DNA from: Shigella virus Moo19
Sequence record: MZ358387
Reading direction: 5' to 3' (one strand)
DNA length: 64,000 nucleotides
The translations under genes were made by a program, and so were the position numbers. Below are positions 5,275 through 61,216 of the stretch, in pieces. Positions within the stretch are counted from its first letter, which is position 1, and the number at the start of each line of letters is the position of its first letter. The notes beneath the pieces are model-generated. The model made no database searches. It was not told the DNA's origin and saw nothing but the letters and a program-made list of their open reading frames with translations.

Positions 5275-5285
5275 GGAATGAAATA

Positions 5286-6341: not shown

Positions 6342-6344
6342 AAC

Positions 6345-29026: not shown

Positions 29027-29108
29027 GGGGGAGTAGTCAAGCGGTCGAAGACGGCAGACTGTAAATCTGTTATCCCACACGGTAGTTCGAATCTACCCTC
29101 CCCCACCA
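29027..29108 (+). tRNA. tRNA-Tyr (anticodon GUA)
   Basis: 7-bp acceptor stem gggggag/ctccccc, T-loop TTCGAAT, anticodon arm 'gcagaCTGTAAAtctgt', encoded CCA. Anticodon arm resembles E. coli tRNA-Tyr as I recall it. Confidence 0.7.
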
Positions 29109-29109
29109 C

Positions 29110-29184
29110 GGTAAGTTAGCTAATTGGTGAAGCGGCTGACTGTTAATCAGTGATAGAGTGGTTCGAGTCCACTACTTACCGCCA
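29110..29184 (+). tRNA. tRNA-Asn (anticodon GUU)
   Basis: Acceptor ggtaagt/acttacc, anticodon loop 'ctGTTaa', T-arm agtgg-ttcgagt-ccact, encoded CCA. Starts 1 nt after tRNA-Tyr. Confidence 0.75.
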
Positions 29185-29189
29185 CATTA

Positions 29190-29266
29190 CGGAGTTTAGC
29201 TCAGTCTGGTAGAGCATCTGCTTTGGGAGCAGAGGGTCGTAGGTTCGAGTCCTGCAATTCCGACCA
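29190..29266 (+). tRNA. tRNA-Pro (anticodon UGG)
   Basis: Acceptor cggagtt/aattccg (one G-U), D-arm gctc...gagc, anticodon loop 'ttTGGga', T-loop ttcgagt, encoded CCA. Confidence 0.75.
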
Positions 29267-29272
29267 AACAAT

Positions 29273-29348
29273 TAGGGGTTAGTTCAGTTGGTAGAACATC
29301 GGACTTTGATTCCGAATGTCACAGGTTCGAATCCTGTACCCCTTGCCA
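29273..29348 (+). tRNA. tRNA-Gln (anticodon UUG)
   Basis: Acceptor taggggt/acccctt (1:72 mismatched), anticodon stem tcgga/tccga, loop 'ctTTGat', T-arm acagg-ttcgaat-cctgt, encoded CCA. Confidence 0.7.
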
Positions 29349-33400: not shown

Positions 33401-36400
33401 GTCAGCAGGGTTAGTGCTGTTCGGGTCTGCCATGAAGTCTTCTACTTTCAGGTTCTTGGTAACGTGAGTGTAATACTCCTGAGCACGAGCCAGAGCAGCA
33501 GGATGAATTGCAGCCTCAGTTGCTAGTGCAGCAACAATGTTGGTGAACAGACGACGTTCTTGCATGTTCATAGTAAAACCATGCCCCTGAACATCACGAG
33601 TTACCTTAACTGCATTCACTACTGCGTCAGAGAATTTACCCTTACGCATATGTTGCTGTACCGGGTCATTACCCAGGTAGTTCGTAATGAGACGGTCAAA
33701 GGTTTGACCCAGTGAAGTAAGACGGTCATTGTTGCCATAAGCAGTGCTATGGAACAGGGTAGCCTCAGCAGTAACCGGAGCAACCGGAGGCTGTGAACGC
33801 ATCACTACAGCAGAGTTAAACAGCAGACCGGAGAACATATCTTCACCGTAAGCAGGGGCTTTCTTACGACCAAAAATGAGGCGTTTAATTGCTTCATAAA
33901 CATCTTTAACCATCCTGGTAAGAGCAGTGGTTTTCTTCTGCTTCTTAATCAGTTCATGGTTGGTTAAGCCCCATGCCATGTACTCATTCAGTGCAGCAGC
34001 TTTAGCCATTGCTGGGTCAATGAAACCGTTGGACAGATGACCATTGATAGTATCCAGTGCATCAGCGTAAGCCTCACGCATAGCCGGAGTATCTTTGGAT
34101 ACATCCAGACTACGGAACTGTTCCATCAGATTCTCGATGTTCTGTACAGCTTCATTGGTCTGGCCTTGATAGTGGTCAAGTACAGTCTCAAAAGTAGAAG
34201 CATGAACCAGTTCATGAATCAAGGTTTCCATTGATGGGCTAACCAGGTAGACAGTCTTATCTGCAAAGTTAGTCCAACCATAGATATTACCTGCATTTGC
34301 AGCTTCAATATCTTCTGGAGCAGGACGCTCTACGTTACGTTCCATTGCATACTGGTCAATCTGGTTCACGTTACCGTAAACAACCTTGTAGCCTTTAGCA
34401 GCCAGTGACTTCTGAATCTCATTCAGTACAGCAGCCTGTTCAACAGGAAGGTTGGACTCTTTAGCCAGTTTGTTAATAGCAGTCTGAGACAGCACACGAA
34501 CACCAGACTTCAGAGCACGGCCTACAGTATCAAACTTATTAGTATCGGCTACTGGAGTCTTCTCAGCTTTACGAGCCTCTTTACGAGCCTGCAATTCAGC
34601 ATCGAATAGCTCATTCAGTTTTGCTACTTGCTGGTCAACAGTCAGACCATCCAGAGAGATATTACCGTTGTTCACATAAGGGGAACCAACAGCAGCCATC
34701 TGGTCAACAGTAGTCTGTACCTGGTTCATTACCTTGTGACGGATATCGACACCCAGAGCAATGTTACGCAGGTTACGCTCAATAAGATTAACACCTGCTT
34801 TCTCAATCATATCAATCTTATACTGCCTGTCACCATCAACACGACTGATATGAGAAAGTTGTTCAAAATCCAAAGCAGAACGGGCAATACTATCAATTGC
34901 TTCATCTGATAACTTATTGAAATCTACATTTTTTACAAACTTAGAGAAGGAGTCATACACATTCTTGATAGGGTTACCCTGCCATGAAGTGTATACAGCT
35001 TCGTTAGCCTTACGGCTTGCATCAGTGATGTCATTGATACCGATGTTCATACCATCAAAGATTTTGAGAGTATTTTTCGGTGCACCTTTCATAATAGAAA
35101 GGGTCTGCATCATCATGCCGTCACCAGTACCAATCGTCATGAAAGGAATACCAGCAACACCAGCTTGTGACGGTGCATAGATGCTCATTGGCACACGCAT
35201 ACGGTCATCAAAGTTGGTAGCCAGAACCTGGTTAGCAACATCAGTATTCTCAGAACCAGCAATGTAGAAAGTCTGGGAACCAGTCTCAATCATTGGAGCT
35301 AAGTCAGACAGTGAAGCCTGAATATCGTTAAGCTCTTTCTGAGTTAAGAAGTCACCCTTCTTCCAGTTAGGGTCTTTTTCTTTTTCTGCCAGCTTCTCCT
35401 GGACACGTTGCTGGAACATGTCTTGCAGAACCAGAGACTGAATCTGGGTAGCTTTCTGAAGCTGTTCAGTGGAGTGCATCAGCCCTTCACCAACAGTATT
35501 CTGAATACCCTGTCTCATTGGTTCAACGAAAAAGTGCAGCATGTTCTCTTGCAGAGACTTCAGTTGCTCACCTTTGACAGTGAACTTCTGAGGGTCAATC
35601 TTGCCAGACATAGCAGTACCAGTGTCTTCAAGAGACAGTTTACCTTTACGCATAACTGGAACAGTACCAGTCAATGCTTTCATGTCTTCAATGAAACGAC
35701 CGAGCATAGCCTCAGCATCGGCCTCAGATGCTGCCTGCTTGCCGAACATTGCCATAGCCGGGGAAATGTCCGGGTTCTGTGCACGGGCTTGCAGAACGTC
35801 GCTGAAGCGTTCGTAGATGGCATCAGTAATTGCACTCACCATCTTGCCTGCAATACCACGAGCACCGGAACCATAAATGGTAATGGTCAGTGGGTTCTTG
35901 GCAATGCCACGTTTCAGTTCGAGGTTGCCTTCTTCATTGATGTTATAGTCAGGAATGAACAAGTCCATCAGAGAGGACAGATGATTCATCTGAGTATTAA
36001 CAGCCGGGTTATTGGCATAGGTATTTCGCAGGTTAGTCAGTGCAGCTTTCAGACCGTTAGTGGATGCTTCGTACAGGTCAACGCTATCGTCAATAGAACG
36101 ATGTTCGTTCATCGTCTTACCAGCACGACCAAAGAATAGACCACCCTTAGCAGTATTCTGTACCCATTCTTTGGTGAACTTACCACCAGTCATCAGCATC
36201 ATTGCGTTAATCGGACCGTTGGTTACACCATCAGCCTCAACGTACAGTGGAGTGTTGAACTTAGACTTGTCTTCAGCATTCAGGTAACGGGCATACTCCA
36301 TCAGAGCCATGAGAGCTACGAAGGATTTATCACCACCCAATGCAGTATTCAGAATCTCAACAGAGTTATCTGGCAGGTTCCCAGTTTTATCGAAATCAAC

Positions 36401-39400
36401 CATCATATCGACAGCAGGTTTCAAATTGCCTTCCAGTGCAGCAGTCAGTTTTGCTGACATTGCCTCACGAGACATGTTGTGAACCTTGATGCCCAATGCC
36501 TGAGCCAAGCCAACCTGGAAATCAGAGAAGGTCTGTGAGTTTTCATTGGACAGGTCAATAGTAGAAAACGTAGGCAGAATAGCTTCACGAACCAGCTTAC
36601 TGGACTGAGGATTATTCTTACCAAGCATCTGCATACGACCAACACGAGTCATGTTGTAGGCATAGTGGATTGGAGTTTCCAGTCCGTTTTCCTGTGCACG
36701 AGTTTGCTCTACCACACTAAACAAGGAATCATAAGCCATAGCTACTGACAGGTTTTTACCTTCCAGTGACTTAGCAGTATTCACATTCAGCAGTTCAGGA
36801 TTAAGCGTACCAGCACCCATCAATTCCAGAATCTTGTCACGACCCATAGCCTCATAGAAGTTAACCATAGGTTCATGAATACGGAACTCAGTAGCCTGTT
36901 CTGCTTTCAGAGCAGCTTTCTGTTCCGGGGTATTCTTAACAGCAGGGTTGCGTAACTGAGTCTGAGCCACAGAAGGTACGTCGTCACCGAAGTACATTTT
37001 CTCTTCTGGTTCTACCAACACAGCTTCTTCAATTGCTGTAGGGAATTTATTGATAGGGTCATTGTCTGCCAGCTTATCAATGGTATACAGACCAACAGTC
37101 TTAGTGGAGTCTGGGTCAATTTCAGAGACATCTAGCATAGTCTCAGTAACTTCACCTGCTTCAATAAGAGCAGACAGAATCTCAGTTGCCATAGCAACAG
37201 GGATACCTTTGGTATAACCCAGTGGTGCATTAGGGTTACGGTCAAAGCCCCAGTAAGATTCAATTTTCTGAGCCAGTGAGTTAGTAGCTTCAACGAGAGT
37301 CTGAGCATTCTCAAACATCTCAACTACACCTTCCGGTAACAGAGCCTGTTCAATACCAGTAATAGCAGCCACGTCTTTAGCATCTTTAACGGCAGCATTC
37401 TGAGTAGCAGTCAGTCGCCATTGCAGACCAGCAAGTACGGCAGTTTCAAGCAGAGAATCGTTGAACTTAAAGCTATTGCCATCTGGTTCAACAATATTCA
37501 GCAGCTTACCACCAACCCAACGGTTAGCTTCAGTGCCCTCAGCAAAACGCTTACCTACGTTCTTGTTAGACAGGAACTTAGCCAGTCGGTCATTCAGAAT
37601 GGATTTAATGTTTTCACCCGTGTTCATCAGGTCTTTATAACGACCAGATACATCAGGGGTAAGAGCAGTATTCTCACTCTGAGTAAACGTTTCGAAACGT
37701 GCATTAGAAGACAGAGCCTGACCAATATCTTTCATTGGAGACTCGGAACCAGTGGTACGAGACTTAGGTTCAGCAGGTAATGAGTAAGCAATCTTGAGGT
37801 AATTTTTTACCCCAGGCTGGCTGACATCAGTACTCCCAACCAAATCAGGATAAGCAGCGTCAATACCACTACGAGTGGATTCCACTTCATTAGTAGTTTC
37901 CTCAGTATTTTCAGTAACATCCTCGATGCTACCCTCATTGATGAGGGTAGCATCCTTTGCCTTTTCGGATTGAGGCTTAGTTACTTTCTCTGGTTCTGCC
38001 TTAGACTCAGTAAAAGGAGCACTATTTTCTACCGTCGATTCCCTATTAGGAGTTACAGTAGGTGCAGCCTCCTGAGTTTGTGCAGGAGTTTCGTCAACTT
38101 GATTCACTGGTTCATTAGTCTGTTGGGATTGAGCAGCGTCAAGATTGCCCTGACGGAACTCTTTAACCACCTGGGCAGCAGGCTTGTCCAGACGTGAATC
38201 CAATGAGGTAACATTGATATGAGAAACGTTAAGCTCCGGGTAAGCCGTAGCAAGTGCATTAGCAATATCAGCTACGGTTTTGGCTTCCAGTCCTACTTGC
38301 TGGGCAAACTTAACCGACTTGGTATCGTAAGGATTAACACCGAGTCCAGTACGACTTCTTACCCATTCACGGGAAGGGGTGAGGGCTTGGTAATGGACAG
38401 ACTTATTCTTATCCGCATTCCCAGAAATCAGATGTTCATTCAACGCTCCGACCTTGTTCTGCATGTGCTGGGCGAACTGCATAAAGTCGCTCAAATAAGC
38501 GGAAGCCAAATCGAAGTTACCAGAGTTATACGCAGACCGAATGCGTTTAGCATGTTGCAACGCAGAGTACTGGCCTTCATTAGAACGAGACTCGTCGGTT
38601 TTAATCTGTTTACCCACAATGTCTTGAGGCCGTAAACCAAGCTGTTCAGCTTTGGTATCAAACTCACGTGCTCCCTGTAATAGAGCAGCAGCGGATTGCA
38701 GGGCAGCACGTTGACGATTGTTCAACGTAATCTTGCCTTCACTCGCATGTTTCAGAACCATGTTCACTGAATCAGCGTCCAGTACTTCCGGGCTTACGTC
38801 AGCAGCCATTGCTACGTTGTTAGCCTGATTCTGGTCTGCTACATCTTCGGTCACATTCAGATTACCTTGTTCAGCTTGTTCCTGAATCATGGAATGAATG
38901 GCACGGAATGCACGAAGTACCTTTGGAGTATTCTGGATGTTAGCCATCAGACCCGAATACTGGTCGAGCACAGCATTAGCAGGACTATCTTTAGGCAGAT
39001 TGTTCAGTGCAGCAGGGTCACGGTTAACGAAGTCTTCCATCTGCATAACCATGTCGTACATATTGGCAGCAGCTTCCATCATCTGGTTCGGGTCTTCAGT
39101 AGTGTTAACTACATCAGCCAGTTTCTGGATTACCTGAACTCGGTCAGTGGAACCGTTAACAGCTTCCTGAACCACAGGAGAAGCATCAGCAAATTCTTCC
39201 GGGTTAATACGGGTAGCATTAACCAAATCACTTGCATACTGGTGTGCAGCAGCCTTCTCTTCAGGAGAGATGTCCATTGCTTCAACAGCATCAGCCATAG
39301 TTGCCTGAGCAGTATCTGCTTGTGCAGCAGCTTCCTGAGCAGCCTCAGCTACTTTAGCGTCAGCAACAGGAGAAGCCTCTTCATTGCGTCGTGCAACTTC

Positions 39401-40852
39401 TTCACCACGTTGAACCAGGATATTGGTAATAGGTGAAGCAGCTTTAGCTACGACATTACCAGCAGCGTTAAGACCAGCCAGGGTAGTACGCAGAGCAGGA
39501 CCAGCAGCAGCACTTGCAGCTTTAACAGCAGAGCCAGGAGCTTGAGCAACTCCAGCAGAGCCGAAGCCATAGAGTGCACCCAGACCAGCTTGCTCACCCA
39601 CACCTTTGAGTGTGTCACGGGTAGCATCAACGTTACTCCGAATTGCACGGTTCTGTGCATACTGACCAGTACCAGACTGAATACCTTCTTCCACAGTCTC
39701 ACGAAGCATGTTGGAACCAGCACCAGCAAGTGAACCTACTTTCAGTGGATTCAGTTCAAACTTGGATACCAGTGGACCCGTTGCAGCAGCAACCGGAGCA
39801 GTGATAGCAGCAGCATCAATACCTGTTTCAGAAGCAGTCTGACGACGAGCTTCATCTGGAGAAAGACCATCTTTGATATGTTGCTGATAAACAGGAGACT
39901 TAGCAGCCAGTTCTTCATGAGACATTTTCATAATCTCAGAAGCAGTTTGCTGATAAGCACCACCAGCTTCCATTGTGCCAATAGCAATGGCAGCAGGAGC
40001 AACCTTAGAGGCAGCATTAACCAACTGTGCAGGACGATGGCCTAATTCAGCAGCAAGTGCAATTGCACGAGCAGCTTTTTCACCACCCATTACAGCACGA
40101 CCTAATGCAGCAACCCCTTTAATAAGAGGACCACCCGTAAACAGTGAGCCTACTCCTTCGCTCAATCCATCTGTTGCAGCCATACCAGTGTCAAGAGTGT
40201 TGGCAACAGAATCATAAGCGTCACGGCCAATACGAGAAAGAGAAGCGACCAAATCACTCTCGCCATCTTTAATATCCTGTTCGTATAAACGCTGGTTTTT
40301 CTGAGCAGATAGCTGGTTCTGGTTCTGAACTACTTTACGGGAAAGATTTAAAGCATCAGACTGAAGACCATGAACACCTTCATTCAACCAGTCCATGCCA
40401 CTAGCTATGGTAGCACCAGCATTATCGTTGATAAGACCTGTTCCAAGAGAAGCAATGCCCCCAAGGGTATTAGCAACACCAAGACCAACACCAGAAAGAG
40501 AATCACCAATTGCTTCTGCATTCGTTCTCTCTCTGGATAAGTCCTGACGAACAGAATCGGCTGCATTAGCACGGCTATTAAGAATACGAAGACCTTCTTC
40601 GGTTCCATACTTAGCAATAAGTTCCATTGGGGAGGCTTGAGTAAAATCAGCCTGAAGTGAACCTGGTTCGAATGCACCAATGCCGAGATTACCTACCCGA
40701 CCTGTTTGAAGGTTATAGGCAGTATCTGGGGTGAGTTGGAAAGGGTTATACCCTTCAGCAGCTTGCTTCTGGGAGGTTGCAGTAGAGACATCGACTTGCT
40801 TAGCATTAGTGATGCTGTCTGCGAAACCTGCCAGTCTGTCAAATGTTGACAT
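30413..40852 (-). CDS. giant virion RNA polymerase (N4 gp50-like)
   Basis: ~10.4-kb ORF. Central region carries T7-like motifs ('YVEADGVTNGPINA', 'KNPLTITIYGSGARG'). ATG at 40852 has AGGAAA RBS; ORF-track start 40894 is GTG. Confidence 0.8.
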   Translation of the reverse strand: MSTFDRLAGFADSITNAKQVDVSTATSQKQAAEGYNPFQLTPDTAYNLQTGRVGNLGIGAFEPGSLQADFTQASPMELIAKYGTEEGLRILNSRANAADSVRQDLSRERTNAEAIGDSLSGVGLGVANTLGGIASLGTGLINDNAGATIASGMDWLNEGVHGLQSDALNLSRKVVQNQNQLSAQKNQRLYEQDIKDGESDLVASLSRIGRDAYDSVANTLDTGMAATDGLSEGVGSLFTGGPLIKGVAALGRAVMGGEKAARAIALAAELGHRPAQLVNAASKVAPAAIAIGTMEAGGAYQQTASEIMKMSHEELAAKSPVYQQHIKDGLSPDEARRQTASETGIDAAAITAPVAAATGPLVSKFELNPLKVGSLAGAGSNMLRETVEEGIQSGTGQYAQNRAIRSNVDATRDTLKGVGEQAGLGALYGFGSAGVAQAPGSAVKAASAAAGPALRTTLAGLNAAGNVVAKAASPITNILVQRGEEVARRNEEASPVADAKVAEAAQEAAAQADTAQATMADAVEAMDISPEEKAAAHQYASDLVNATRINPEEFADASPVVQEAVNGSTDRVQVIQKLADVVNTTEDPNQMMEAAANMYDMVMQMEDFVNRDPAALNNLPKDSPANAVLDQYSGLMANIQNTPKVLRAFRAIHSMIQEQAEQGNLNVTEDVADQNQANNVAMAADVSPEVLDADSVNMVLKHASEGKITLNNRQRAALQSAAALLQGAREFDTKAEQLGLRPQDIVGKQIKTDESRSNEGQYSALQHAKRIRSAYNSGNFDLASAYLSDFMQFAQHMQNKVGALNEHLISGNADKNKSVHYQALTPSREWVRSRTGLGVNPYDTKSVKFAQQVGLEAKTVADIANALATAYPELNVSHINVTSLDSRLDKPAAQVVKEFRQGNLDAAQSQQTNEPVNQVDETPAQTQEAAPTVTPNRESTVENSAPFTESKAEPEKVTKPQSEKAKDATLINEGSIEDVTENTEETTNEVESTRSGIDAAYPDLVGSTDVSQPGVKNYLKIAYSLPAEPKSRTTGSESPMKDIGQALSSNARFETFTQSENTALTPDVSGRYKDLMNTGENIKSILNDRLAKFLSNKNVGKRFAEGTEANRWVGGKLLNIVEPDGNSFKFNDSLLETAVLAGLQWRLTATQNAAVKDAKDVAAITGIEQALLPEGVVEMFENAQTLVEATNSLAQKIESYWGFDRNPNAPLGYTKGIPVAMATEILSALIEAGEVTETMLDVSEIDPDSTKTVGLYTIDKLADNDPINKFPTAIEEAVLVEPEEKMYFGDDVPSVAQTQLRNPAVKNTPEQKAALKAEQATEFRIHEPMVNFYEAMGRDKILELMGAGTLNPELLNVNTAKSLEGKNLSVAMAYDSLFSVVEQTRAQENGLETPIHYAYNMTRVGRMQMLGKNNPQSSKLVREAILPTFSTIDLSNENSQTFSDFQVGLAQALGIKVHNMSREAMSAKLTAALEGNLKPAVDMMVDFDKTGNLPDNSVEILNTALGGDKSFVALMALMEYARYLNAEDKSKFNTPLYVEADGVTNGPINAMMLMTGGKFTKEWVQNTAKGGLFFGRAGKTMNEHRSIDDSVDLYEASTNGLKAALTNLRNTYANNPAVNTQMNHLSSLMDLFIPDYNINEEGNLELKRGIAKNPLTITIYGSGARGIAGKMVSAITDAIYERFSDVLQARAQNPDISPAMAMFGKQAASEADAEAMLGRFIEDMKALTGTVPVMRKGKLSLEDTGTAMSGKIDPQKFTVKGEQLKSLQENMLHFFVEPMRQGIQNTVGEGLMHSTEQLQKATQIQSLVLQDMFQQRVQEKLAEKEKDPNWKKGDFLTQKELNDIQASLSDLAPMIETGSQTFYIAGSENTDVANQVLATNFDDRMRVPMSIYAPSQAGVAGIPFMTIGTGDGMMMQTLSIMKGAPKNTLKIFDGMNIGINDITDASRKANEAVYTSWQGNPIKNVYDSFSKFVKNVDFNKLSDEAIDSIARSALDFEQLSHISRVDGDRQYKIDMIEKAGVNLIERNLRNIALGVDIRHKVMNQVQTTVDQMAAVGSPYVNNGNISLDGLTVDQQVAKLNELFDAELQARKEARKAEKTPVADTNKFDTVGRALKSGVRVLSQTAINKLAKESNLPVEQAAVLNEIQKSLAAKGYKVVYGNVNQIDQYAMERNVERPAPEDIEAANAGNIYGWTNFADKTVYLVSPSMETLIHELVHASTFETVLDHYQGQTNEAVQNIENLMEQFRSLDVSKDTPAMREAYADALDTINGHLSNGFIDPAMAKAAALNEYMAWGLTNHELIKKQKKTTALTRMVKDVYEAIKRLIFGRKKAPAYGEDMFSGLLFNSAVVMRSQPPVAPVTAEATLFHSTAYGNNDRLTSLGQTFDRLITNYLGNDPVQQHMRKGKFSDAVVNAVKVTRDVQGHGFTMNMQERRLFTNIVAALATEAAIHPAALARAQEYYTHVTKNLKVEDFMADPNSTNPADRYYAQQKFDTLMGANNIEFDAQGRSSLLPTFVGLAMVSEEVRNVLTDMPVMKADKASGNTIDAMLTNIGVAAMDSLNKRVAGDTKATNVQEGIDALAETIMESSLNAQSFYDSVATPTGNMIDRANQYIVDGVERLADATLDTARDVAANAKNPLVKATAHAAQLVAAIATEKNGEKVAQGVMAAMNQGKAWQPFYDLVNDIVGRTKSNASVYDMIKAVRSQVQADRQQFREHLPTTIASKFSRKLTDAEWKAMHTGMGKTDLAVLRDTMSLGEIRDLLSSQKEMDKLVNKLEADLQNQAGRNWPLINRKSKQLAQYMINGTVGNNLLRNAEAISRLLGERTSVKSTVDVDTLDKLITLYAIEAMSQADREALASLAQTETEGMDFVTSYLVGQRVEEKRKAQNDDRARLNHYKGYIPSETKQGVNLIVAEDSQFNELSEKSFTRIAGYQGSSGERTRSRGYYFSPVAARAPYSQGILQNVRNTAGGVDVGTGFTMGTMVAGRITDKPSVDRITKALAKGERGNEPLMPIYDGNGRVVAYEHSIDPNMLTHIAGEDNLAKAIGVWRGRQVEEAKAQKFNDALIENLHAMYEKDMADSTSNKSQYINLLGSKLDPVTADAMRLMNAETRQKAESLFGNGELWVRRDMLNDALGYRAASVGDVWTGNSRWSPETLDTFKKAMLGVFGNRAYKYFMQGENITQTVVREAKTLIVVKSLVVPAVNFLANLYQMVARGVPVKDIAKGIPQKTAEINQYMKSRLRQVDAEAELRATTNPNQARKLKAEIQSINDSYKRMSIWPLLEAGEFSSIADAGISRDDLLIPDGKVQEYMQRLADKLPKKLQTAGRYALITKDTALFQGIQKTVEYSDFIAKAIIYDELTKRKGKSKEEALGRVTEEFINYDRLPGRFRGYMESMGLMWFYNFKIRSTKVAVSMIRNNPVHAAMAMLAPTPTMFGNVGLPLQDNLFSAAADGRLDYSIGLGQGLRAHNLNPWMNLVN

Positions 40853-40919
40853 AGCTTGTTTCCTGTTCAAACTTATATCTATAAGAGAACTCACTGTACA
40901 TTAAGTGAGGGTAAGAAAA

Positions 40920-52793: not shown

Positions 52794-53294
52794 CTATTGT
52801 AAAAGTTTCCGGTCGGCCTTGATTTGGTTCCCCAACTCAATCAATTGGTTGTCACGGAGTCTAACAGTTGCCCTGAGTTCTTCAACCACTCGTCTGCCTT
52901 GTTCAAGACTGGAGTCGAGTTCGGCTGCATGGCTTGCAAGACTTCTGCACTCAAAGGTTCCGGCTTCGGCTTGACGTTTATATACGTCGGCTCTTTTGCT
53001 TGATTGCTGCATCCGGCTGTCGTAATCACTGCTAAGGCGAGCAAGCTCGCCTGCGTAATTACTCTCAGCCGTCTGCAATCTGGTAGTGAGCATACCGACT
53101 TCATAGCTGTGTTGTCTGTTAAGGACATCGTATTCACCCTTAAGTTTATTGTAGGCTTTCTGGTCTTCTACTTTCTGAGCATCCCACTTGGCCTGAACTT
53201 TATCCTGACCATTACTGGAACCCCAAAAGTAAATGGTGGCTCCCAAAGCCACCACTACCAGATAAGGCCAACCTTTAGAGATTAGCGTCATCAT
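52794..53294 (-). CDS. i-spanin (Rz-like)
   Basis: GGAGG RBS then ATG 53294. N-terminal TM '[17 protein letters not shown]' followed by a coiled coil. Confidence 0.55.
52841..53128 (-). CDS. o-spanin (Rz1-like lipoprotein) embedded in the i-spanin gene in another frame
   Basis: Hydrophobic signal '[14 protein letters not shown]' with lipobox Cys, then a Pro-rich mature part ('[11 protein letters not shown]...'). Start uncertain (53128 or 53104). Confidence 0.5.
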   Translation of the reverse strand: MSLTDNTAMKSVCSLPDCRRLRVITQASLLALAVITTAGCSNQAKEPTYINVKPKPEPLSAEVLQAMQPNSTPVLNKADEWLKNSGQLLDSVTTN

Positions 53295-53910
53295 TACATG
53301 CCTCCAGAGGCACATTACCAATACGGTTTGATATCCAGCCATACGTATAGTCAGGCATGTTTAACGAGGTGTAGTGATTAAGTTGTTTACCATCCAATAG
53401 CTTAATCATAGTCTTACAGGCTTCTACTTTGCCTCGTTTTTTCTGGAGTGCCCTATACGAGTTAATGGTTGCTGTACCAACTTTACCATCAACTTGTATT
53501 TTAGGGTAGTCTTTGCCATTACGACTAACGTCATTCAAAGACTCTTGAAGCCAACGTGCTGGACGTGGTGTCCCAGTGTTTACTCCAGCATCCACCAGCT
53601 TGTGGGTCACAGCAGGACTAATAGAAGCGAACTCAATAAAGTTTGGCTTGATAATGTAGTCATCAACATAAACTTCAGCAGCCATCTCTTTAGTAAGTCC
53701 TTTCATAGTCCCATCCCATCCGTATTTCTTTGCTAAGACTTCCTTGTGGGACTGGGCTACTTTCTTAGTTATCCCGTGATTAGTTTCCCCTCCTGGGTCT
53801 TTGGGGTCATTTACATAACCACCTTCCAGCATAAAAACGGAACCAAGAATGGCAGCAACTACTGCTCCCACTGCACCACCCCTGGTTGCTAGTTTTTTAT
53901 TTATTGCCAT
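53275..53910 (-). CDS. SAR endolysin, GH108-type N-acetylmuramidase
   Basis: AGAGGAGG RBS then ATG 53910. N-terminal Gly/Ala-rich weak TM 'GGAVGAVVAAILGSVFML' followed by 'EGGYVNDPKDPGGETNHGIT'. Confidence 0.7.
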   Translation of the reverse strand: MAINKKLATRGGAVGAVVAAILGSVFMLEGGYVNDPKDPGGETNHGITKKVAQSHKEVLAKKYGWDGTMKGLTKEMAAEVYVDDYIIKPNFIEFASISPAVTHKLVDAGVNTGTPRPARWLQESLNDVSRNGKDYPKIQVDGKVGTATINSYRALQKKRGKVEACKTMIKLLDGKQLNHYTSLNMPDYTYGWISNRIGNVPLEACNDDANL

Positions 53911-54163
53911 GATAGTCCTCCTCTTTAGGCTTTAAACGAATAAGCCTGCCAACGATGTTCAAGGCAAATAAGCCAATGGCAACACCTGAACCATGTGGAA
54001 TCTGGTCAAGCAGATGTCTTGGCAAACCTGAGAACATTGGCTGGATTATATCGACGGCAGAGAAGAGAATCAGACCAATAGTACTAATCTGGATAGAAGC
54101 CCATTTCCAGGCTCGTTTCCAGTTAGGTACTAGTTCAACCCTTTTGGTTAACCTGCGAACCAT
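53897..54163 (-). CDS. holin (two TM helices; pinholin candidate)
   Basis: TAAGGAGA RBS then ATG 54163. Two hydrophobic helices and a charged C-terminus; overlaps the endolysin start by 14 nt. Confidence 0.5.
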   Translation of the reverse strand: MVRRLTKRVELVPNWKRAWKWASIQISTIGLILFSAVDIIQPMFSGLPRHLLDQIPHGSGVAIGLFALNIVGRLIRLKPKEEDYHGNK

Positions 54164-54477
54164 GCGAAAATCTCCTTACGTGCTGCAACCAACAGACTTA
54201 AGATTGCACCTGCTGCTGCCCATACCCACTTACCAAAGATTCCTGCACCAACTACCTTGTGCTTAATGGTAATGAACTCTTCGATGGTAGGCTCATTTTT
54301 AGCAAGACTCTCTTCAACATTCTTAAGTCTGTTACTAACTTCAGCAACTGAGTCCTTAAGATTGGTGATGGAGTTTTCCAGCTTTGCTCGGTCATTCCTT
54401 TCACGTTCCTGGTTCTCGAACATGGTTTTAAATCGTTCCTCCAGTCGAGCCAGTAATACATCAGTGGGTTCAGACAT
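54148..54477 (-). CDS. C-terminally membrane-anchored coiled-coil protein (antiholin/lysis-regulator candidate)
   Basis: Cytoplasmic coiled coil then one C-terminal TM 'VVGAGIFGKWVWAAAGAILSLLVAA'. Start at ATG 54477; ORF-track start 54507 is GTG. Confidence 0.35.
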   Translation of the reverse strand: MSEPTDVLLARLEERFKTMFENQERERNDRAKLENSITNLKDSVAEVSNRLKNVEESLAKNEPTIEEFITIKHKVVGAGIFGKWVWAAAGAILSLLVAARKEIFAWFAG

Positions 54478-54535
54478 AATAATTTTCCACGTAGTAATAA
54501 TATGCACCAGGAATAATACTTATAAACGCTAGCCT

Positions 54536-54567
54536 ACGAAAGGAAAAAGCCCCCATTAAGGAGGCTT
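54536..54567 (-). terminator. terminator-like hairpin downstream of the tail-spike gene
   Basis: Stem aagcccc/gaggctt (one mismatch) with U-rich flank on both strands. Confidence 0.45.
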
Positions 54568-54573
54568 ACTTTT

Positions 54574-57204
54574 TTAAAGCTGGGAGATGCTCCAGTATGC
54601 ACTACGTGATTTTGTCAGTGGTGGTCTAGTGGTAAGTGGTTCGGTTGCCCGAATACGAGTACCTGCCGGAACTGCTGTCTGAATAGGATGAGCAATGTCC
54701 ATCGTAATCGGAGCAGAGATGTTTGTAGCAGGTGTCTGATAAGGAGCCTTAGTAATATAAGTCTCAAGGTCAGCACCTCCAGCCCCAGCACCCGGAATTG
54801 TAATACGAGTACCTGGTGAGAACTGGCAAACGTACAACCATGCTGAACCCTTAGACGTACCATCTGGAGTCAGATTCTGGGTAATGGTTTTAGTCCCAAC
54901 AGCAGCAGCTTTAATATCTGCTTCTTCGGTATCCGGGATAAACACACCAGGGGAAGTAACTACGAATGGGCTGTTAACGTAAACGTCAGCAGCAACAAAC
55001 TTAGTCTTATCCCTCATGTTGTCACGACCAGAGAGTGACGTGTTAGGAACCATCATGGAACGTTGAAGCTCCATAACAAACACCGTATCCCCATAGTTAA
55101 ACTGACGACCAGTAGGGAAACGAGTACCATTCTGACCGTGGTCAGCTTCACCAGGGAAGTAGACACGACCAGCAGAACCAACAGGCACACCGTTAGAACC
55201 AATGAAGTTAGCGTATGGTACAGACGTAACGTTAGAACCAGTGATGCTCACCTCAGAGTAACGGCAACGTAACCAGCCCTGACTAATTGCAATACGGTCA
55301 CCGTGGGTAGCGTTAACGTTAGTCATGTTCAGGACAGAACGTTGGAACGTAAACCAACCATCACCAGTAAAGCCATCAGCAGAAGAATACTGACCAACAC
55401 AGTTAAATACCTGAGTCAGTACGTTGGACATGTTCAACTCAGATGCTACACCGAACACAGTGAACTTGTAGGCATCAATGTTATCCAGTGTCACACGGTT
55501 ATTGTGCTCAACCAGATTGCCGTCCAGACCAGCAGATACACCTGCATAGAAACGACCAGTCTTAGTCACAACGTTACGTACTGTGAAGTTGTGGCAAGGA
55601 CAAGCCGGACCATATACGAAACCTGGGTCGGGTGGAATCAAAGTACCACTCTCATCATACTTAGGAGCATTGTTACCCCACTCCAGAGAAATAAGGCGTA
55701 CATCCTCAGCACTGGCAATTTCCTGGAATTTACCCGGTTCAAGCGGGAACTCAATACGTTCAGTCGCTAAGTCCGGTTCGCCGTATACACCGTTAATAGC
55801 AAAGTCTTTACAGCCATACATGAAGACTGCACCCAGAGACAAACCAGTACCCACAGATACTTTGTTACATGGGTCAGCATGAATGTTCTCGATAACAAGG
55901 TTACGACCAAGCTCAAAGTGAACCACCTGACGAACACGGTCTGCATAGACATTACGGATGGTAACGTTCTTACAGTATTGGTCTTGAGTAGCAGCCCAAC
56001 CATATGGACCCTTACCAGCAACACCGATACCGATACCCCAGTTGGATACAGGGATTGGAGCCAGGGAACCATCAATGTCAAAGATGGTGATGTTCTCAAT
56101 AACACAGCCATCATCGAAGCAGTTCTGTACAACGTTAAGCTCAATGGCATCGCCCTTCATAGAATGGAATGTAAGGTTACGAAGAACCATACGGTCAATC
56201 TTGCCACCAGAACCTTGCTGAAGAATACCGAAGTAACCACCACGGAAAATACAACCTTCCATCTGGAAAGTACCTGCATCAGTGAAAGAAGCATTAGCAG
56301 CTTTCTCTGCATCAGTAGCACCAGGGATAGAAGTGTCATAATGCCATAAGTGCTGGAATACAACGGAGCCAGCTTGACCAGCACGAGGAGGACCATCGAA
56401 CAGACAATCGGTCATAACAATGTCACCACCCTTTGGCATTACACGCGTGTTCTTAAACGTAGTGCCACGGAAGATAGTGTTATGAATCCAGAAGTCACGG
56501 TCACCCTCAAACTCACCATTCAGTACAGTGATGTTTTCAGCAAGCAGACGCCCTACGTTAAGCCAACCGGACTGGAATCCAGTACAGTCAATAACGTGTG
56601 GTGCATTGTCACGAGCATATTTAAACGCATCGTTAACTGCATCAGTCATGGTTGCATATGGACGGTTAGTAAATTCACGAATGTGAGGTACGTTCATCCA
56701 GTCAGAGATATTACCACCAGCAGGAGTAGTAATAGTCTCAGCAGGAATAAGAACCCATGCACCAGGTTTAATGCCACCAGCATTAATTGGGTTGTCCGTG
56801 GCAGACATCTGCTTAGGTAATGCCCCAGTCCAACGGTAACGACCAGCACCGAACAGAATAGTTTGGTTATGGGTTTCCAATGTGTAATTCATACCAAAAG
56901 CAAAACCAGTATGAAAATACTCACCACGTTTAGCAGCATACTCACCAAGGTCTATAGAACCAGCAGAATGTGTAAGTACCCCAGAAGTAGCTAAACCTAC
57001 TGCCGTGGTTCCAGATGGTAGACCACTAGGTAGATAATAAGCACGTTCTGTACGCTGGTCATAAATCACACGAATGGCAGAAATATCCATACCAGCTTTA
57101 AAGTAAGCTACCTGTTTTTCTGTTACCCCGAAATTACGGGCAATTGATTGCATATTTACAAGGATACTAGTTGAACCCTTTCCTTGTGCAAACAAGTTGT
57201 TCAT
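54574..57204 (-). CDS. tail spike protein with predicted right-handed beta-helix (polysaccharide-depolymerase-like)
   Basis: AGAGG RBS then ATG 57204. 876 aa with recurring beta-helix rungs ('IENITIFDIDGS', 'VTIRNVYADRV', 'LVIENIHADP'). Confidence 0.5.
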   Translation of the reverse strand: MNNLFAQGKGSTSILVNMQSIARNFGVTEKQVAYFKAGMDISAIRVIYDQRTERAYYLPSGLPSGTTAVGLATSGVLTHSAGSIDLGEYAAKRGEYFHTGFAFGMNYTLETHNQTILFGAGRYRWTGALPKQMSATDNPINAGGIKPGAWVLIPAETITTPAGGNISDWMNVPHIREFTNRPYATMTDAVNDAFKYARDNAPHVIDCTGFQSGWLNVGRLLAENITVLNGEFEGDRDFWIHNTIFRGTTFKNTRVMPKGGDIVMTDCLFDGPPRAGQAGSVVFQHLWHYDTSIPGATDAEKAANASFTDAGTFQMEGCIFRGGYFGILQQGSGGKIDRMVLRNLTFHSMKGDAIELNVVQNCFDDGCVIENITIFDIDGSLAPIPVSNWGIGIGVAGKGPYGWAATQDQYCKNVTIRNVYADRVRQVVHFELGRNLVIENIHADPCNKVSVGTGLSLGAVFMYGCKDFAINGVYGEPDLATERIEFPLEPGKFQEIASAEDVRLISLEWGNNAPKYDESGTLIPPDPGFVYGPACPCHNFTVRNVVTKTGRFYAGVSAGLDGNLVEHNNRVTLDNIDAYKFTVFGVASELNMSNVLTQVFNCVGQYSSADGFTGDGWFTFQRSVLNMTNVNATHGDRIAISQGWLRCRYSEVSITGSNVTSVPYANFIGSNGVPVGSAGRVYFPGEADHGQNGTRFPTGRQFNYGDTVFVMELQRSMMVPNTSLSGRDNMRDKTKFVAADVYVNSPFVVTSPGVFIPDTEEADIKAAAVGTKTITQNLTPDGTSKGSAWLYVCQFSPGTRITIPGAGAGGADLETYITKAPYQTPATNISAPITMDIAHPIQTAVPAGTRIRATEPLTTRPPLTKSRSAYWSISQL

Positions 57205-57212
57205 AAGAACCT

Positions 57213-57240
57213 CTTTAAAAAGCCCTACCTAAGTAGGGCA
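57213..57240 (-). terminator. rho-independent terminator downstream of the SGNH tail-fibre gene
   Basis: Stem gccctac/gtagggc, loop 'ttag' on the minus strand, then UUUUU. Confidence 0.6.
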
Positions 57241-57260
57241 TTAAATGAAAATTGGAGAGG

Positions 57261-60200
57261 TTAGAAGCAACCTACAGCAGACTCAGAGTTACCAAACCAA
57301 TCACTACCCTCAAGCTCAATGGTCCAATAACCAGTTGGAGCAGTGCTAGGCCATGCCAGAGTAAATACCAGATAAATACCACCTTTCCAGGAAAGGTCAG
57401 TAGATGGGTTACCTGTTTGTTCTTGCAAACCTGCATTGTAGTCATAAATATTTTCCAATGGTTGGTTTGCACCAGAACTACCCGCTGCCACAATAACGTT
57501 TTGTTTAGCTGTACCCATGTATGCAGTTAAGGTTGGTACAGAGGCAACATCAGCAAAACTGTGGGTAAGAACTTTGCCTTTCCACTTAAGACCAGACGAA
57601 CCATCCTTGTAGACAAGCCACTCGATGTAGTCGCCTTTCTCGTTATATACCTTCAGTTTGCCTGGAACCGTATTGTAGAAATAAGGAGCAGGAACTGCAT
57701 TCGTACCCGGACCAGTACCCAAGAAGCTCTGAGGTGCTCTCATTTGGAAGCCAGTCAATGCTACTGCCACAGGTAGCGTACCACCCTGCCCAGATGGAGA
57801 AGGCATACGACGAGTGTGTACTACACGATAACGGCGTTCTTCATCCTGTCCCCACATCTGCTCAGTTGACAGACCAATTGGGATTGGCTGAACAGTAATG
57901 CTGTTAACAAAAGCATCTTTCAGTGCTTCACCTTGCAAATTGGTAAACAGAGTAATAGTGTGCCAACCACGACCAATCAAACGACCCACAAACTTACGTG
58001 AGCCTGGCATTCCCTCGTAGTTGTTAGCTGACTTATTAACACGCTGTAAAGATGCACCAAAAGAGTTATCAATATCTACTGCATACTGGTAATAAGGCTT
58101 GTTGCCGTTATTCCACCAGTATCCATTGGTGTAAATGGTATTAATTAAACCATCCAGCTTACCGTAGATATGTGCAGCTTCTGCATCCAGATAGAAGCTA
58201 AAGGTACAGATGGTTGCTTTACCCGCCTGGAGTACACCAGTAACTTTGTCACGAGTGTACGCTCCGTCAGAACGACCAGTACCAATATTACCTCGTGCAT
58301 CACACCAACCAATATGGTCAGACATCATACCCGTCCACACAGTAGTTTCATTAACCACTGGTTTATAGGTATCCAGGAGTCCACCTGCCATAAGCATGGA
58401 TGCCAGCTTCTCACCGTGAATTGCATAACCCATAGAGTTGTAGTGAGTACCATCAGACTGAACAGCAGCATAGTGACGGTTAAGCATTACTTCATGAGCA
58501 TCAAATACAGGGCAACCGTAAACACGAGCTACCATCTGCATACGTTTAGCCCAATGCAGCCACGCTGGGTTACCAGCACCCTGACCACCACCAGATGGAC
58601 GTTGAACAACTACAGCACAGCCCCAGTCGATATAACGACGAATGAGCTTCTCCATGTATTCCATGTAGAGGTCAAGAGTTGCACCAGCTACACCACCGGA
58701 ATCGTTAATTGCATACATGATGAACACAATGTCGCAGTTTGGATTAGACTGCCACAGTGCCTCTTCATAAGCCTGTTTCGCCGTGTAACCTGAAATTGCT
58801 CTCATAGTAATATAGACGGAACAACCAGACTGTTCAGGCAAGTAACTAGCAAAACGGTATGGGTAGTTCATAGAAGCACGGGTAGCCCAGTCACCATCCT
58901 GAGCAGGAATAGTATCTGAGGAAGTACGGTCAAACCCAGCAGTCATGGAGTCACCCAGGAAGCAGCACTTCAGGGAACCACGGTTATGAACTTGATAATC
59001 GCACCATGCCAGCTTAGCCATGTTCTTTGCACGGAAAGATGCAGAGTCAGACTGAACAAGCCATTGCTCAACAGTACGCCCGTCAGAGGCTTTAACCATT
59101 GCAGCACCACCAGTACTTGCAAGCTGGCTGCGTAAAGTTGCATTAGTAATCTCTACCCACTTACCAGAACCAATTCCACCAGAAGAAGATGGAGTATCCC
59201 CGGCACGTACAGTCTTAGGTAATGCACCTTCCCAACGATATAGCTTACCTTCCATAGTAGAACCAACTGACTTAGCAGCAGAGTCAACAGTTGCACCTTT
59301 CTCGAAAGTACCAGCCATTGGATTACCAGTCTCAGCCCCCAGACGGGAAAGAACAGGCTCAACGATTACCAGTGGGTTTGCTGGTTCTAACAGGTCAATA
59401 ACAACAGCACCTGGGTTATAAATCAGCTTGTTACCTTCTACCTTAACGATATAAACGTTAGGTGGCAGGTTAGGCAAATCCCAGTACTTCTGAGCATTCA
59501 CATCGTAAAGAACTTTCTTGTCAGTAATCACTACATTAGTAGAGGAAGACAGAACAACATCAGTATCCTTTACGTTGTTTGCACGAGCTACTTCTTGCGT
59601 GGTTCGGTCAGTAATCTCAAGACTGGCAGATTCACCACCCAGAGTAATAATCACACGGTCACCCTGAGCAAGAAGCTCAGTCATAGTAACAGTACGAGTA
59701 CTTGGGTCATAAACGTAAGACTTGGTTTGCAGGTTCTTATAGTAACGTTCACCATTTTTATAAACGGCAGGAACATCTTTAAAGTTATAAGGAACAGTAA
59801 TTACCTGTTCGCCACCTACAGCAGCACCGTTGTTATAGAGCCAGTTAACCTGAACCCAGTTGGATACATTAGGGTTATCCGGGCTTGCTGGAGCAGCAGA
59901 AGTCAGTGCAATAACTTCATCACCCTGAACCAGTGGGTTACTAAGGGTAACGGTGGAGTTAGCTGGGTTAAAGCTGAAGCCATAACCAATGTACTGAACC
60001 GAGCCGTTAATGATAATGAAGGGTACACCCAGTGCTTCAGCAGGAACTTTAAATGAAGTCTCCCCACCCAATGCAGAGCCATTAGCATAAACGTATGGAA
60101 TGTAGGAACCGGAACCACCACCTGTACCACCACTGCCGGAACCAGAGGTAGATACTTTAATCCAGGAGCCTGTAGCAGTTTGGTCATCTGGGCGAATACC

Positions 60201-60521
60201 AGAAGTATCATCAGGTACGTACAGGTAATCAGTTACCTGACGGTCACCTGTATCAGCGAAGCCATAGACACGGGCATACTTAGCCAACTTGTTCAGCTTC
60301 TTTAATTCAGCTTCTGACTTAACACCCAGAACCATACCGTAGGTATTCAGGAAGTCATACAGTAACTTCAGGTTACCCAGGTTACAGTAGACTGCACGAA
60401 CCACGGCATAGGCATTACCAATCACCTTATCGACAAGTGGGTCGTTGGAGCGATTGCAATGATATGGGTCGAGAGTCCAGTCATTGTCTGCATCAAATGG
60501 AATGTGAGAGTTCATACCCAT
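57261..60521 (-). CDS. tail fibre/spike protein with SGNH (GDSL) esterase domain
   Basis: 1086 aa. All three SGNH blocks present: '[11 protein letters not shown]', 'MYAINDSGG', 'SDGTHYN'. GAGGA RBS favours the third codon (ATG 60515). Confidence 0.65.
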
Positions 60522-61216
60522 CCTCGTTTTTCAAATAAAACATTTGTATTAGACATGCTTCCATTAGCAAGGTCGAAATCTACGACTTCACCACAGATGC
60601 TTTCATATAGCTGTAAGTATTCAGCAGCTTTTGCTGTGCTGCCCTCAGTATTGAGTCCAGTATGGTAACGATAACCAACCCAGTTCTCTAATGCTGAGTA
60701 AAGAGTCTCAGGGAGGTCAATCTCCTGATTCTCATCCCCGGTAAGCTCAGGATGTTTAGCCTGATAAAGTACGTTCAATGCTTCAAAGTGACGAGGCCAC
60801 ATACACTGCAAAACGTCAGGTCGAGGTGTAAACAAACCGTTCTTATCATGGTCGTCGTTGAGTTTACGACGAATACCTTTACTATCATAGACATTCAGGA
60901 TTTTAATTACATCTTCCTGGAATGGTTCTTGTGGGGTATCCATGATGTATGGGTAAGGAGCCTTAGCTGGGTCAAACCGTTCATATGAATAGCGAGCCAG
61001 TAAAGGGTAGTCAGTACGTCCCTCTTTCATTTCCACAATACAGTTATTCGTTCTCAGTACGAATCGACTGTGCAGACGAGTAAGACCTTCATTGATATGG
61101 GCAAGCACTTCAGGCTTACCCCATGCTTCAATGTTAACCTTATCGTCAGTAATAAAGCCTGCACTCTTTAAAGAGGTAAGAGCCAGCACCTTATAAACGT
61201 CGGATAACTTACGCAT
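60512..61216 (-). CDS. hypothetical virion/tail-associated protein (N4 gp67-like by position)
   Basis: 234 aa between terminase and tail-fibre genes. Confidence 0.4.

Follow-up and report, generated by a model that had tools for sequence, protein, structure and literature searches.

The tailspike locus of phage Moo19

The window analysed here, the whole stretch of 64,000 nucleotides (GenBank MZ358387), comes from the Shigella phage Moo19 of the Schitoviridae, and the tailspike pair that it carries at positions 54574-60521 has already been published. Two open reading frames occupy this region, both on the minus strand like all other features described below: 54574-57204, encoding gp81 (876 aa, 93 kDa), and 57261-60521, encoding gp82 (1086 aa), in exact agreement with the coordinates and sizes given in an earlier note on this DNA. 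A phmmer search aligns the 1086-residue product with PDB 9d80_D/9d81 from end to end (1-1086 versus 1-1086, 2528 bits), with 100% identity across residues 1-957, the part displayed. Directly upstream, gp83 (60512-61216) encodes a head-to-tail adaptor of 234 residues, and its 3' end overlaps the start of gp82 by 10 nt. The top match of the adaptor is chain 9d80_B 'Gp83' over its full length (1-234 versus 1-234, E 1.7e-162), and the portal likewise finds a chain of 9d80 as its full-length top match. The protein sizes agree with those of Subramanian et al. 2024 (gp82, 118 kDa; gp81, 93 kDa; portal, 760 aa; adaptor, 234 aa). The locus is identical to the one described there (PDB 9d80/9d81), with no sequence difference, and it is already known: the structure and assays of gp82 were published in 2024 (Subramanian et al., Sci Adv, PMC11654681). 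Since that publication includes an esterase tailspike determining infection of O-acetylated S. flexneri 2a, the main claim of the earlier note brings nothing new. At the DNA level, just two matches of ~60 bp turned up when the locus was compared with 50,697 phage records, a collection that excludes Moo19's own MZ358387 and NC_070850.

The gene order corresponds to that of Escherichia phage G7C (gp63/gp63.1/gp66/gp67/gp68), with the adaptor gene in the place of G7C gp67. Each tailspike gene is followed by a terminator-like hairpin: GCCCTACTTAGGTAGGGC then TTTTT at 57222-57239, 3' of gp82, and AAGCCTCCTTAATGGGGGCTT then a T-run at 54547-54567, 3' of gp81. G7C has an analogous hairpin 3' of gp66, and the 16-bp 'repeat_regions' annotated on both sides of its gp63.1 gene turn out to be hairpin stems (CCCCGCTTCGGCGGGG) of the terminators that follow gp66 and gp63.1. 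These repeats were rejected as a shared recombination signal, because they are terminator stems in G7C and the hairpins at the same places in Moo19 are unrelated to them.

Domain organization and esterase activity of gp82

The N-terminal part of gp82, a hub tailspike with esterase activity (PMC11654681), is a virion attachment domain (aa 1-130, 60132-60521), of which residues 10-74 have been modelled into the virion tail map (PMC11654681). It lies inside a longer stretch (aa ~1-457) that is 54% identical to G7C gp66 aa 1-454 (BLAST, E 1e-159) and that, together with XD-domain matches, places gp82 among the hub proteins. A Gly/Ser linker of 16 residues (aa 124-139) follows the attachment domain and leads to XD2/XD3-type branching domains (aa 140-300, 59622-60104), a candidate docking site for gp81 by analogy with G7C. 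In phmmer searches, this region matches CBA120 TSP2 (6w4q; gp82 aa 140-399, E 1.2e-22) and TSP4-N (7rfo; aa 132-211, E 9e-13). The next segment is an internal tailspike N-terminal (TSP-N) module (aa 295-476, 59094-59639), detected as Pfam Tail_spike_N PF18668 at aa 405-458 (E 1e-13) and by matches to CBA120 TSP1 (4oj5, aa 295-474), TSP4 (5w6h) and G7C gp63.1 (4qnl, aa 295-468). Behind the esterase domain (aa 521-705, 58407-58961), the C-terminal distal domains (aa 706-1086, 57264-58406) gave no Pfam match at E <= 0.01 and are presumed to bind the substrate. Taken with the SGNH domain, they show about 74% identity to tail fibres of the T7-like phages Dev2, GW1, SFPH2 and SH3-5 and to PDB 9lna.

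The esterase domain is recognized by the Pfam profile Lipase_GDSL_2 (PF13472) at aa 521-701 over its full length (profile positions 1-178 of 178), with 55.8 bits (E 1.1e-14) against a curated cut-off of 32.9 bits; PF00657 scores 21.3 bits, slightly under its cut-off of 23.6. The SGNH blocks occur in order, as block I (G523-D-S525), block II (S577-G578), block III (AIND, ~603-607, with N606 and D607) and block V (D690-G-T-H693), pointing to Ser525, Gly578, Asn606, Asp690 and His693 as the key residues, and alignments show every block kept in B2 gp48 and in PDB 9lna. The earlier note had described a complete SGNH domain with GDS, GxND and DxxH blocks. The full-length profile match, GDS and DxxH bear this description out, but a literal search for G.ND in gp82 found none, block III being A-I-N-D, without the Gly that opens GxND in its textbook form. 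When gp82 was shuffled 2000 times, an ordered GDS..ND..DxxH series within 220 aa arose just 24 times, and this rarity, combined with the Pfam profile match, argues that the motifs are not there by chance.

The activity itself is known from published experiments. Purified gp82, solved at 2.4 Å, hydrolyses the model ester 4-nitrophenyl acetate in an assay with a negative-control tail protein alongside (PMC11654681), which supplies the hydrolase activity on which the earlier note had made its proposal depend. The role of the 1086-aa protein as an SGNH esterase receptor-binding protein is experimentally established in the same work. Moo19 infected just one strain of the panel tested there and requires O-antigen; infection is lost in a gtr-/oacD double mutant, which is without the GlcNAc O-acetyl group and glucosylation, and is unaffected by deletion of oacB, while attempts to knock out oacD alone did not succeed (PMC11654681).

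Our analysis suggests that the gp82 esterase most likely has the O-antigen of S. flexneri 2a as its natural substrate and acts on the O-acetyl groups there. Alternatively, the enzyme could be a generic esterase with another acetylated glycan as its real target, the O-antigen being recognized through binding by the distal domains alone. Such a division of labour would fit an assay that used a model substrate solely and genetics that rest on the double mutant, with no effect of the oacB deletion, yet we consider it improbable: in G7C and Possum, two systems of equivalent architecture, the SGNH spikes have been shown to deacetylate O-polysaccharide, and Moo19 no longer infects once the GlcNAc acetyl group and glucosylation are both gone. 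A module directed at O-antigen would also agree with the hosts of the phages that carry ~74% identical versions of it, namely Shigella flexneri, Citrobacter and Cronobacter.

gp81 and its place beside gp82

gp81 has been found in virions by mass spectrometry and seen as a flexible side appendage; its attachment site and partner interface are not resolved in the virion map at 4.3 Å (PMC11654681). Its first 160 residues (56725-57204) form a gp63.1-type docking (TSP-N) module: aa 1-159 are 47% identical to the same residues of G7C gp63.1 (BLAST, E 5e-41), CBA120 TSP3 and TSP1, 4qnl and B2 gp48 are matched with E values from 1e-40 to 1e-43, and PF18668 is detected at aa 97-153. This N-terminus, and the position of the gene adjoining the hub gene on its downstream side as in G7C, identify gp81 as a branch spike.

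The Moo19 authors called gp81 'G7C gp66-like', with an 'unclear' function, and described gp82 and G7C gp63.1 as having similar topology (PMC11654681). We rejected the gp66-like label, as the match is weak (29%) and covers the shared TSP-N module only. An orthology of gp82 with gp63.1 was discarded too, because BLAST finds no similarity between the esterase domains and gp82 is without the G7C_GBD and G7C_C Pfam domains. By sequence homology, it is gp82, not gp81, that is the gp66-type hub, with gp81 as the gp63.1-type branch, and the published homology labels should be swapped. In G7C, binding of gp63.1 needs the XD3 domain of gp66, according to deletion mutants cited in PMC8825819; by analogy, we infer that gp81 docks on the XD3 domain of gp82.

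The rest of gp81 (aa 170-876, 54577-56697) is predicted to be a beta-helix body with a WcaM-like core at aa 324-473. PHROG 6117, 'colanic acid degradation', covers aa 16-860 (E 5.9e-179), and phmmer aligns gp81 with phi92 gp150 (6e0v) in three stretches (E 2.9e-42), the similarity being concentrated in aa 300-475 and including the shared motifs GDAIELNVV and HxE. The AlphaFold2 (AF2) model of gp81 has a mean pLDDT of 81.6 and is strand-rich from about residue 200 on. With this model, Foldseek returns 6e0v_A as the top match (E 5e-33, target-normalised TM 0.80), ranked far above every other beta-helix spike, with 24% identity in the structural alignment. The suggestion of the earlier note that the 876-aa protein is beta-helix-like thus holds in the model and in its best solved match, a beta-helix tailspike, and the predicted depolymerase function is likewise favoured by the sequence matches and the predicted fold.

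The WcaM family models of NCBIfam (equivalogs NF007517/TIGR04004) match the core (aa 324-473) at model positions 164-308 of 464 (E 1.6e-19). As this partial match scores 69.8 bits, well short of the 808-bit cut-off, gp81 is not a WcaM orthologue and shares only a domain with WcaM. The corresponding Pfam domain, PF27800 'WcaM', is precomputed on gp81 homologues, including one 97% identical, and is found in many phages behind varied anchors, among them P22 head-binding and T7 fibre N-termini. In an alignment of 39 gp81 homologues reaching down to 27% identity (alignment A1), 36 columns are invariant, including Q330, D352, E355, N357, Q426, H429 and E431. Literature searches on WcaM and phage tailspikes, and on the status of the colanic-acid genes in S. 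flexneri, returned no usable report.

Exchangeable modules and a probable branched adsorption complex

Comparison of the locus among relatives shows that its parts are exchanged separately. The metagenomic relative L002 is collinear with the window at 92-96% nucleotide identity save for one segment (57214-59408), which corresponds to gp82 aa 372-1086 and its terminator. The L002 hub is 78% identical to gp82 over aa 1-397 and unrelated beyond that, without an SGNH domain; its residues 398-892 gave no Pfam, NCBIfam or PDB sequence match. L002 thus swaps the hub module and keeps gp81, at 97% identity, while phage DSF2 has the esterase spike and no gp81. Judged from these sequences, the esterase and gp81 are cassettes that can each be exchanged without the other, the scaffold being conserved.

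These comparisons also bear on host range, which the earlier note had attributed to both proteins. The attribution stands for gp82 and not for gp81, since B2 and DSF2 do without gp81 and yet infect serotype 2 hosts of S. flexneri. As far as host range is known, it is therefore gp82 that sets it, and gp81 is dispensable. The 'dual-enzyme adsorption apparatus' proposed from the sequence is secured in one half: both proteins are in the virion and the esterase of gp82 has been demonstrated, whereas the enzymatic part of gp81 is predicted from its sequence and modelled fold.

As to what gp81 may do, its body is most likely a glycanase with a beta-helix fold that belongs with phi92 gp150 and WcaM in one family, predicted to degrade colanic acid or a similar exopolysaccharide. 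PMC13450770, citing Xu et al. 2025, reports that gp150 hydrolyses colanic acid; the bond cut by gp150 is the Glc-Fuc linkage. gp81 is 43-45% identical over 95-99% of its length to proteins labelled as colanic-acid-degrading by annotation only. With 24% identity to gp150 and labels of this kind, the substrate is not secure. We tentatively entertain, at somewhat less than even odds, that gp81 has colanidase activity and serves as a conserved branch spike of a 'generalist' kind, which would strip Rcs-induced colanic acid common to many Enterobacteriaceae, with serotype specificity coming from the C-terminal cassette of the hub, an esterase in Moo19 and DSF2 and an unrelated module in L002. If true, this would explain an appendage left without a function in the Moo19 paper. 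On this view, gp81 should give an advantage solely where hosts are mucoid, stressed or in biofilms, and the normal plating of the gp81-less phages B2 and DSF2 on laboratory lawns fits that prediction.

Beta-helix tailspikes often switch substrate at the divergence that separates gp81 from gp150, the characterised colanidase to which it is similar mainly in aa 300-475. gp81 might instead be an active depolymerase for another polysaccharide, such as the O-antigen, capsule or exopolysaccharide of an alternative host, and so widen the host range. The presence of PF27800 behind several anchor types in many phages would agree with this, as would the second spike of G7C, which is thought to expand host range (PMC11654681), and the same proposal for CBA120-like second spikes. 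We regard it as rather unlikely, as the best-conserved segment of gp81 is the WcaM-like core, held in common with a protein from the bacterial colanic-acid gene cluster, and as gp81 is nearly unchanged in a relative with a wholly different hub module, which is expected if the target glycan is conserved and not serotype-specific; the single strain infected by Moo19 does not speak for a widened range either. Infection of serotype 2 hosts by B2 and DSF2, and the fact that the Moo19 authors found no function for gp81, could also mean that it is a catalytically dead or vestigial passenger kept by linkage, leaving an adsorption apparatus that is effectively single-enzyme. The invariant columns among distant homologues (with D352, E355, N357, H429 and E431), incorporation into virions according to mass spectrometry and map density, and an intact gene with its own terminator, conserved in L002, make this highly improbable.

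Taken together, the locus probably encodes the branched two-spike adsorption complex of an N4-like phage with the G7C architecture, in which gp82 is the hub esterase, gp81 the docked colanidase-like branch, and the modules are exchangeable. The N-terminus of gp82 anchors the trimer to the tail, its XD2/XD3 domains would serve as the docking platform, and its C-terminal two-thirds comprises the SGNH esterase and the distal domains. Action on the O-acetyl groups of the S. flexneri 2a O-antigen would then result in reversible, serotype-specific primary adsorption. The first ~160 residues of gp81 would dock the branch on the hub, and its beta-helix would degrade colanic acid or a similar exopolysaccharide and thereby let the virion reach the LPS. 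The published work (PMC11654681) located both proteins in the virion, solved gp82, measured its esterase activity with a model ester and showed that infection depends on O-antigen; the present analysis contributes the assignments by homology, the match in fold and the limits of the cassettes. What goes beyond the published paper is modest, namely the swapped hub and branch labels and the functional hypothesis of gp81 as a colanidase-like glycanase, the latter being relevant to engineering Shigella and E. coli phages for mucoid or biofilm cells. More broadly, this locus is a well-documented case of the way in which N4-like phages assemble their host recognition, with a hub-and-branch scaffold that is conserved and enzymatic modules on it that can be interchanged.

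The individual modules have relatives in otherwise different phages. phi92 gp150 (PDB 6e0v/6e0w) and the 'colanic acid-degrading' proteins of phapecoctaviruses have the beta-helix fold in common with gp81 aa ~170-876, but gp150 has another N-terminal anchor and belongs to a myovirus, in contrast to the podovirus Moo19. The tail fibres of the T7-like phages Dev2, GW1, SFPH2, SFP20/21 and SH3-5 (PDB 9lna) carry an esterase and distal module 69-74% identical to gp82 aa ~404-1086, yet on a short T7-type N-terminus; in 9lna, a chain of 832 aa, the homology starts near residue 143. As there is no DNA-level similarity to these fibres, any transfer of the module would not be recent.

Shigella phage B2 shares with Moo19 its host and the esterase activity: its gp49 (PDB 9d83/9d84 for the gp49/gp48 pair) corresponds to gp82 aa 25-378 and its gp48 to aa 294-1082. 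In B2, hub and esterase are two polypeptides and there is no gp81-like spike, whereas in Moo19 they are fused in one chain, leaving the docking platform free for gp81. The likeness to G7C gp66/gp63.1 (Prokhorov et al. 2017; PDB 4qnl) extends from the gene order to the two-protein hub-and-branch design, with N-termini 54% (hub) and 47% (branch) identical to those of Moo19 and one spike that is an SGNH esterase needing acetylated O-antigen. The two systems differ in that G7C bears the esterase on the branch, gp63.1, and Moo19 on the hub, gp82, its branch bearing the colanidase-like beta-helix instead. With the labels swapped, the Moo19 esterase thus sits on the opposite partner from that of G7C, which shows both positions to be able to bear the enzyme.

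Two spike genes and a documented esterase

Two minus-strand ORFs encode the spikes, gp81 (876 aa, 54574-57204) and gp82 (1086 aa, 57261-60521), at exactly the positions the earlier note had given. Residues 521-701 of gp82 match the entire Pfam Lipase_GDSL_2 profile at 55.8 bits (cut-off 32.9), with SGNH block I at 523-525 (GDS), block II at 577-578 (Ser-Gly), block III at 604-607 (A-I-N-D) and block V at 690-693 (D-G-T-H). The ordered motifs were also present in 24 of 2000 shuffled versions of the protein. Among the three blocks claimed from the sequence, GDS and DxxH stand; GxND does not occur literally, its first residue being Ala, but its catalytic Asn does.

Solved structures identified the locus: over its whole length, gp82 aligns with residues 1-1086 of PDB 9d80 chain D and 9d81 (2528 bits, all displayed residues identical), and the 760-aa portal and 234-aa adaptor find their top, full-length matches in 9d80 chains A and B ("Gp83"), respectively. 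These are structures of Shigella phage Moo19 (Subramanian et al. 2024, Sci Adv, PMC11654681; GenBank MZ358387); the window's proteins have the sizes given in that paper. There, gp82 (118 kDa) is the tailspike, with its isolated trimer resolved at 2.4 Å and its N-terminal residues modelled in the virion; the purified protein hydrolysed 4-nitrophenyl acetate dose-dependently, a tail protein serving as negative control. Moo19 no longer infects S. flexneri CFS100 (serotype 2a2) mutated in waaC, waaL or waaG, infection is likewise lost in a gtr-/oacD mutant, and purified LPS leaves the phage infectious (PMC11654681), so its interaction with LPS is reversible. Hydrolysis and O-antigen requirement bear out the earlier reading of gp82 as an esterase receptor-binding protein, and the lack of hydrolase activity named as its refutation is countered by the published assay. 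The Moo19 experiments thus already address the main claim and its test: the feature is known, the observation is confirmed and its interpretation supported.

The surrounding genes comprise a lysis cassette, SU10/N4-type portal, adaptor and large terminase. The DNA backbone is ~78-80% identical to G7C-like (Gamaleyavirus) and related N4-like phages; at the DNA level, gp81 and gp82 matched none of the phages deposited in the collection searched. A minus-strand ORF of 3493 aa (30413-40894) is, by size and position, the N4-type virion RNA polymerase, named gp67 (378 kDa) in the Moo19 paper (PMC11654681). Four plus-strand tRNA genes (Tyr-GTA, Asn-GTT, Pro-TGG, Gln-TTG; 29027-29348) sit where the plus-strand gene block gives way to the minus-strand block; DSF2, 94% identical to Moo19, is reported to have none (PMC13153029). 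The gene for an Rz-like spanin (PHROG 6197, 52794-53342, minus) contains an ORF nested in another frame (52841-53137), resembling the annotated gp60/gp60' pair of G7C. Since the spanin ORF spans 182 aa from ATG to stop, against 166 aa called in DSF2 and in the metagenomic relative L002, its start is probably internal. Between holin and gp81, a minus-strand ORF of 119 aa from GTG (54148-54507, PHROG 5211) occupies the position of G7C gp63; DSF2 keeps its counterpart as "gp80", 109 aa (PMC13153029). The end of gene gp83 (234 aa, 60512-61216, minus) shares 10 nt with the start of gp82, and its product is homologous to the "head to tail adaptor Gp50" of phage B2. In Table 1 of the Moo19 paper the adaptor appears as "gp68, 70 kDa" and gp83 is entered as a "predicted structural protein", while the text describes a 234-residue adaptor (PMC11654681), which looks like a labelling inconsistency.

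Colanidase-like features of gp81

Several lines point to a colanidase-like enzyme in the body of gp81, as judged from homology and a predicted fold. PHROG 6117 "colanic acid degradation" covers residues 16-860 (E 5.9e-179), and tblastn gave 43-45% identity across 95-99% of the length with phapecoctavirus "colanic acid-degrading" proteins and, in the same range, with tailspikes of N4-like Kosakonia and Enterobacter phages. Three stretches align by phmmer with phi92 gp150 (6e0v; E 2.9e-42), for which colanic acid hydrolysis is reported (PMC13450770, citing Xu et al. 2025). This colanidase is also by a wide margin the closest solved structure to the AlphaFold2 model of gp81 (mean pLDDT 81.6; E 5e-33, target TM 0.80), whose N-terminal module matches 4qnl (G7C gp63.1), 9d84 and CBA120 TSPs. 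The 43 homologues in a large protein collection carry Pfam PF27800 "WcaM" after N-terminal anchors of three kinds, and Q330, D352, E355, N357, Q426, H429 and E431 are invariant in an alignment of 39 sequences with identity down to 27%. NCBIfam WcaM models match residues 324-473 (E 1.6e-19) far under the equivalog cut-off, indicating a common domain rather than orthology. The sequence matches and predicted fold support the earlier proposal of a depolymerase-type tailspike.

Exchange of spike modules

The 26-kb contig L002 is 92-96% identical to the window in nucleotides and collinear save for 57214-59408, which is replaced. Its hub spike is 78% identical to gp82 over residues 1-397 and unrelated thereafter, and a search for an SGNH domain found none; its gp81 homologue is 97% identical. 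Conversely, DSF2, a phage lysing S. flexneri serotype 2/X, lacks gp81, and its 1085-aa spike shares 94% identity with gp82 (PMC13153029). Spike gp81 and the C-terminal part of gp82 are independent cassettes. The esterase and distal module of gp82 (aa ~404-1086) shares 69-74% identity with the tail fibres of T7-like phages of Cronobacter, Shigella and Citrobacter, and is therefore common to different phage families; PDB 9lna falls in the same range.

L002 (Logan ERR11441280) comes from an uncultured close relative of Moo19, and its hub (5269-7947, plus) carries a different C-terminal module at residues 398-892, with zero matches among Pfam, NCBIfam and PDB sequences; here the known scaffold bears a receptor-binding module yet to be characterised. 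Two ~56-62 kb phage contigs (L003, 5285-10649; L005, 5610-10382) encode Thy1, DNA polymerase A and a "Cap_depo" protein, and combine a gp81-like WcaM-domain spike with another Tail_spike_N protein; one of these ends in an endosialidase-chaperone (Peptidase_S74). The colanidase-like branch spike therefore recurs as half of two-spike sets beyond N4-like phages.

Hub, branch and a model of adsorption

Residues 3-457 of gp82 are 54% identical to residues 1-454 of G7C gp66, the hub of a branched tailspike complex (E 1e-159), and residues 1-159 of gp81 are 47% identical to the same residues of the branch gp63.1 (E 5e-41). The gene order gp63/gp63.1/gp66/gp67/gp68 of G7C is kept at the Moo19 locus, and gp82 residues 132-399 resemble the XD-type branching domains of CBA120 TSP2 and TSP4-N. 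Together, these homologies identify gp82 as the hub and gp81 as the branch. In the virion, gp81 (93 kDa) was detected by mass spectrometry and is a flexible side appendage, its AlphaFold model being docked at 4.3 Å; the authors label it "G7C gp66-like", assigning no function (PMC11654681). Its match to gp66 is weak (29%) and confined to the common tailspike N-terminal module, which, against 47% to gp63.1, favours a gp63.1-like label instead.

A branched gp82/gp81 complex is the best-supported model. Trimers of gp82 would be anchored to the tail and adsorb reversibly and specifically, their SGNH domain acting on the O-acetylated O-antigen of serotype 2a; gp81 trimers would dock on the gp82 XD3 domain through the gp63.1-type module and remove colanic acid or an exopolysaccharide like it. 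Others established the presence of both proteins in the virion, the esterase activity and the O-antigen requirement; the homologies, fold match and cassette boundaries come from the present analysis. What the esterase acts on in nature, where gp81 docks, and the activity and substrate of gp81 are inferred. In G7C, gp63.1 binding needs the XD3 domain of gp66 (PMC8825819). A less likely alternative is that the esterase targets something besides O-antigen, since the assay used 4-nitrophenyl acetate; the loss of infection in the gtr-/oacD mutant speaks against it. Likewise, gp81 might degrade some other glycan, a reading that its WcaM-like core speaks against, or, improbably, be inactive, against the evidence of the invariant residues.

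What is left beyond the published work is the corrected hub/branch homology and a testable colanidase hypothesis for gp81. In phage B2 the counterpart of gp82 is split into gp49 (gp82 residues 25-378) and gp48 (residues 294-1082). The esterase lies on the hub in Moo19, whereas in G7C it is on the opposite partner.
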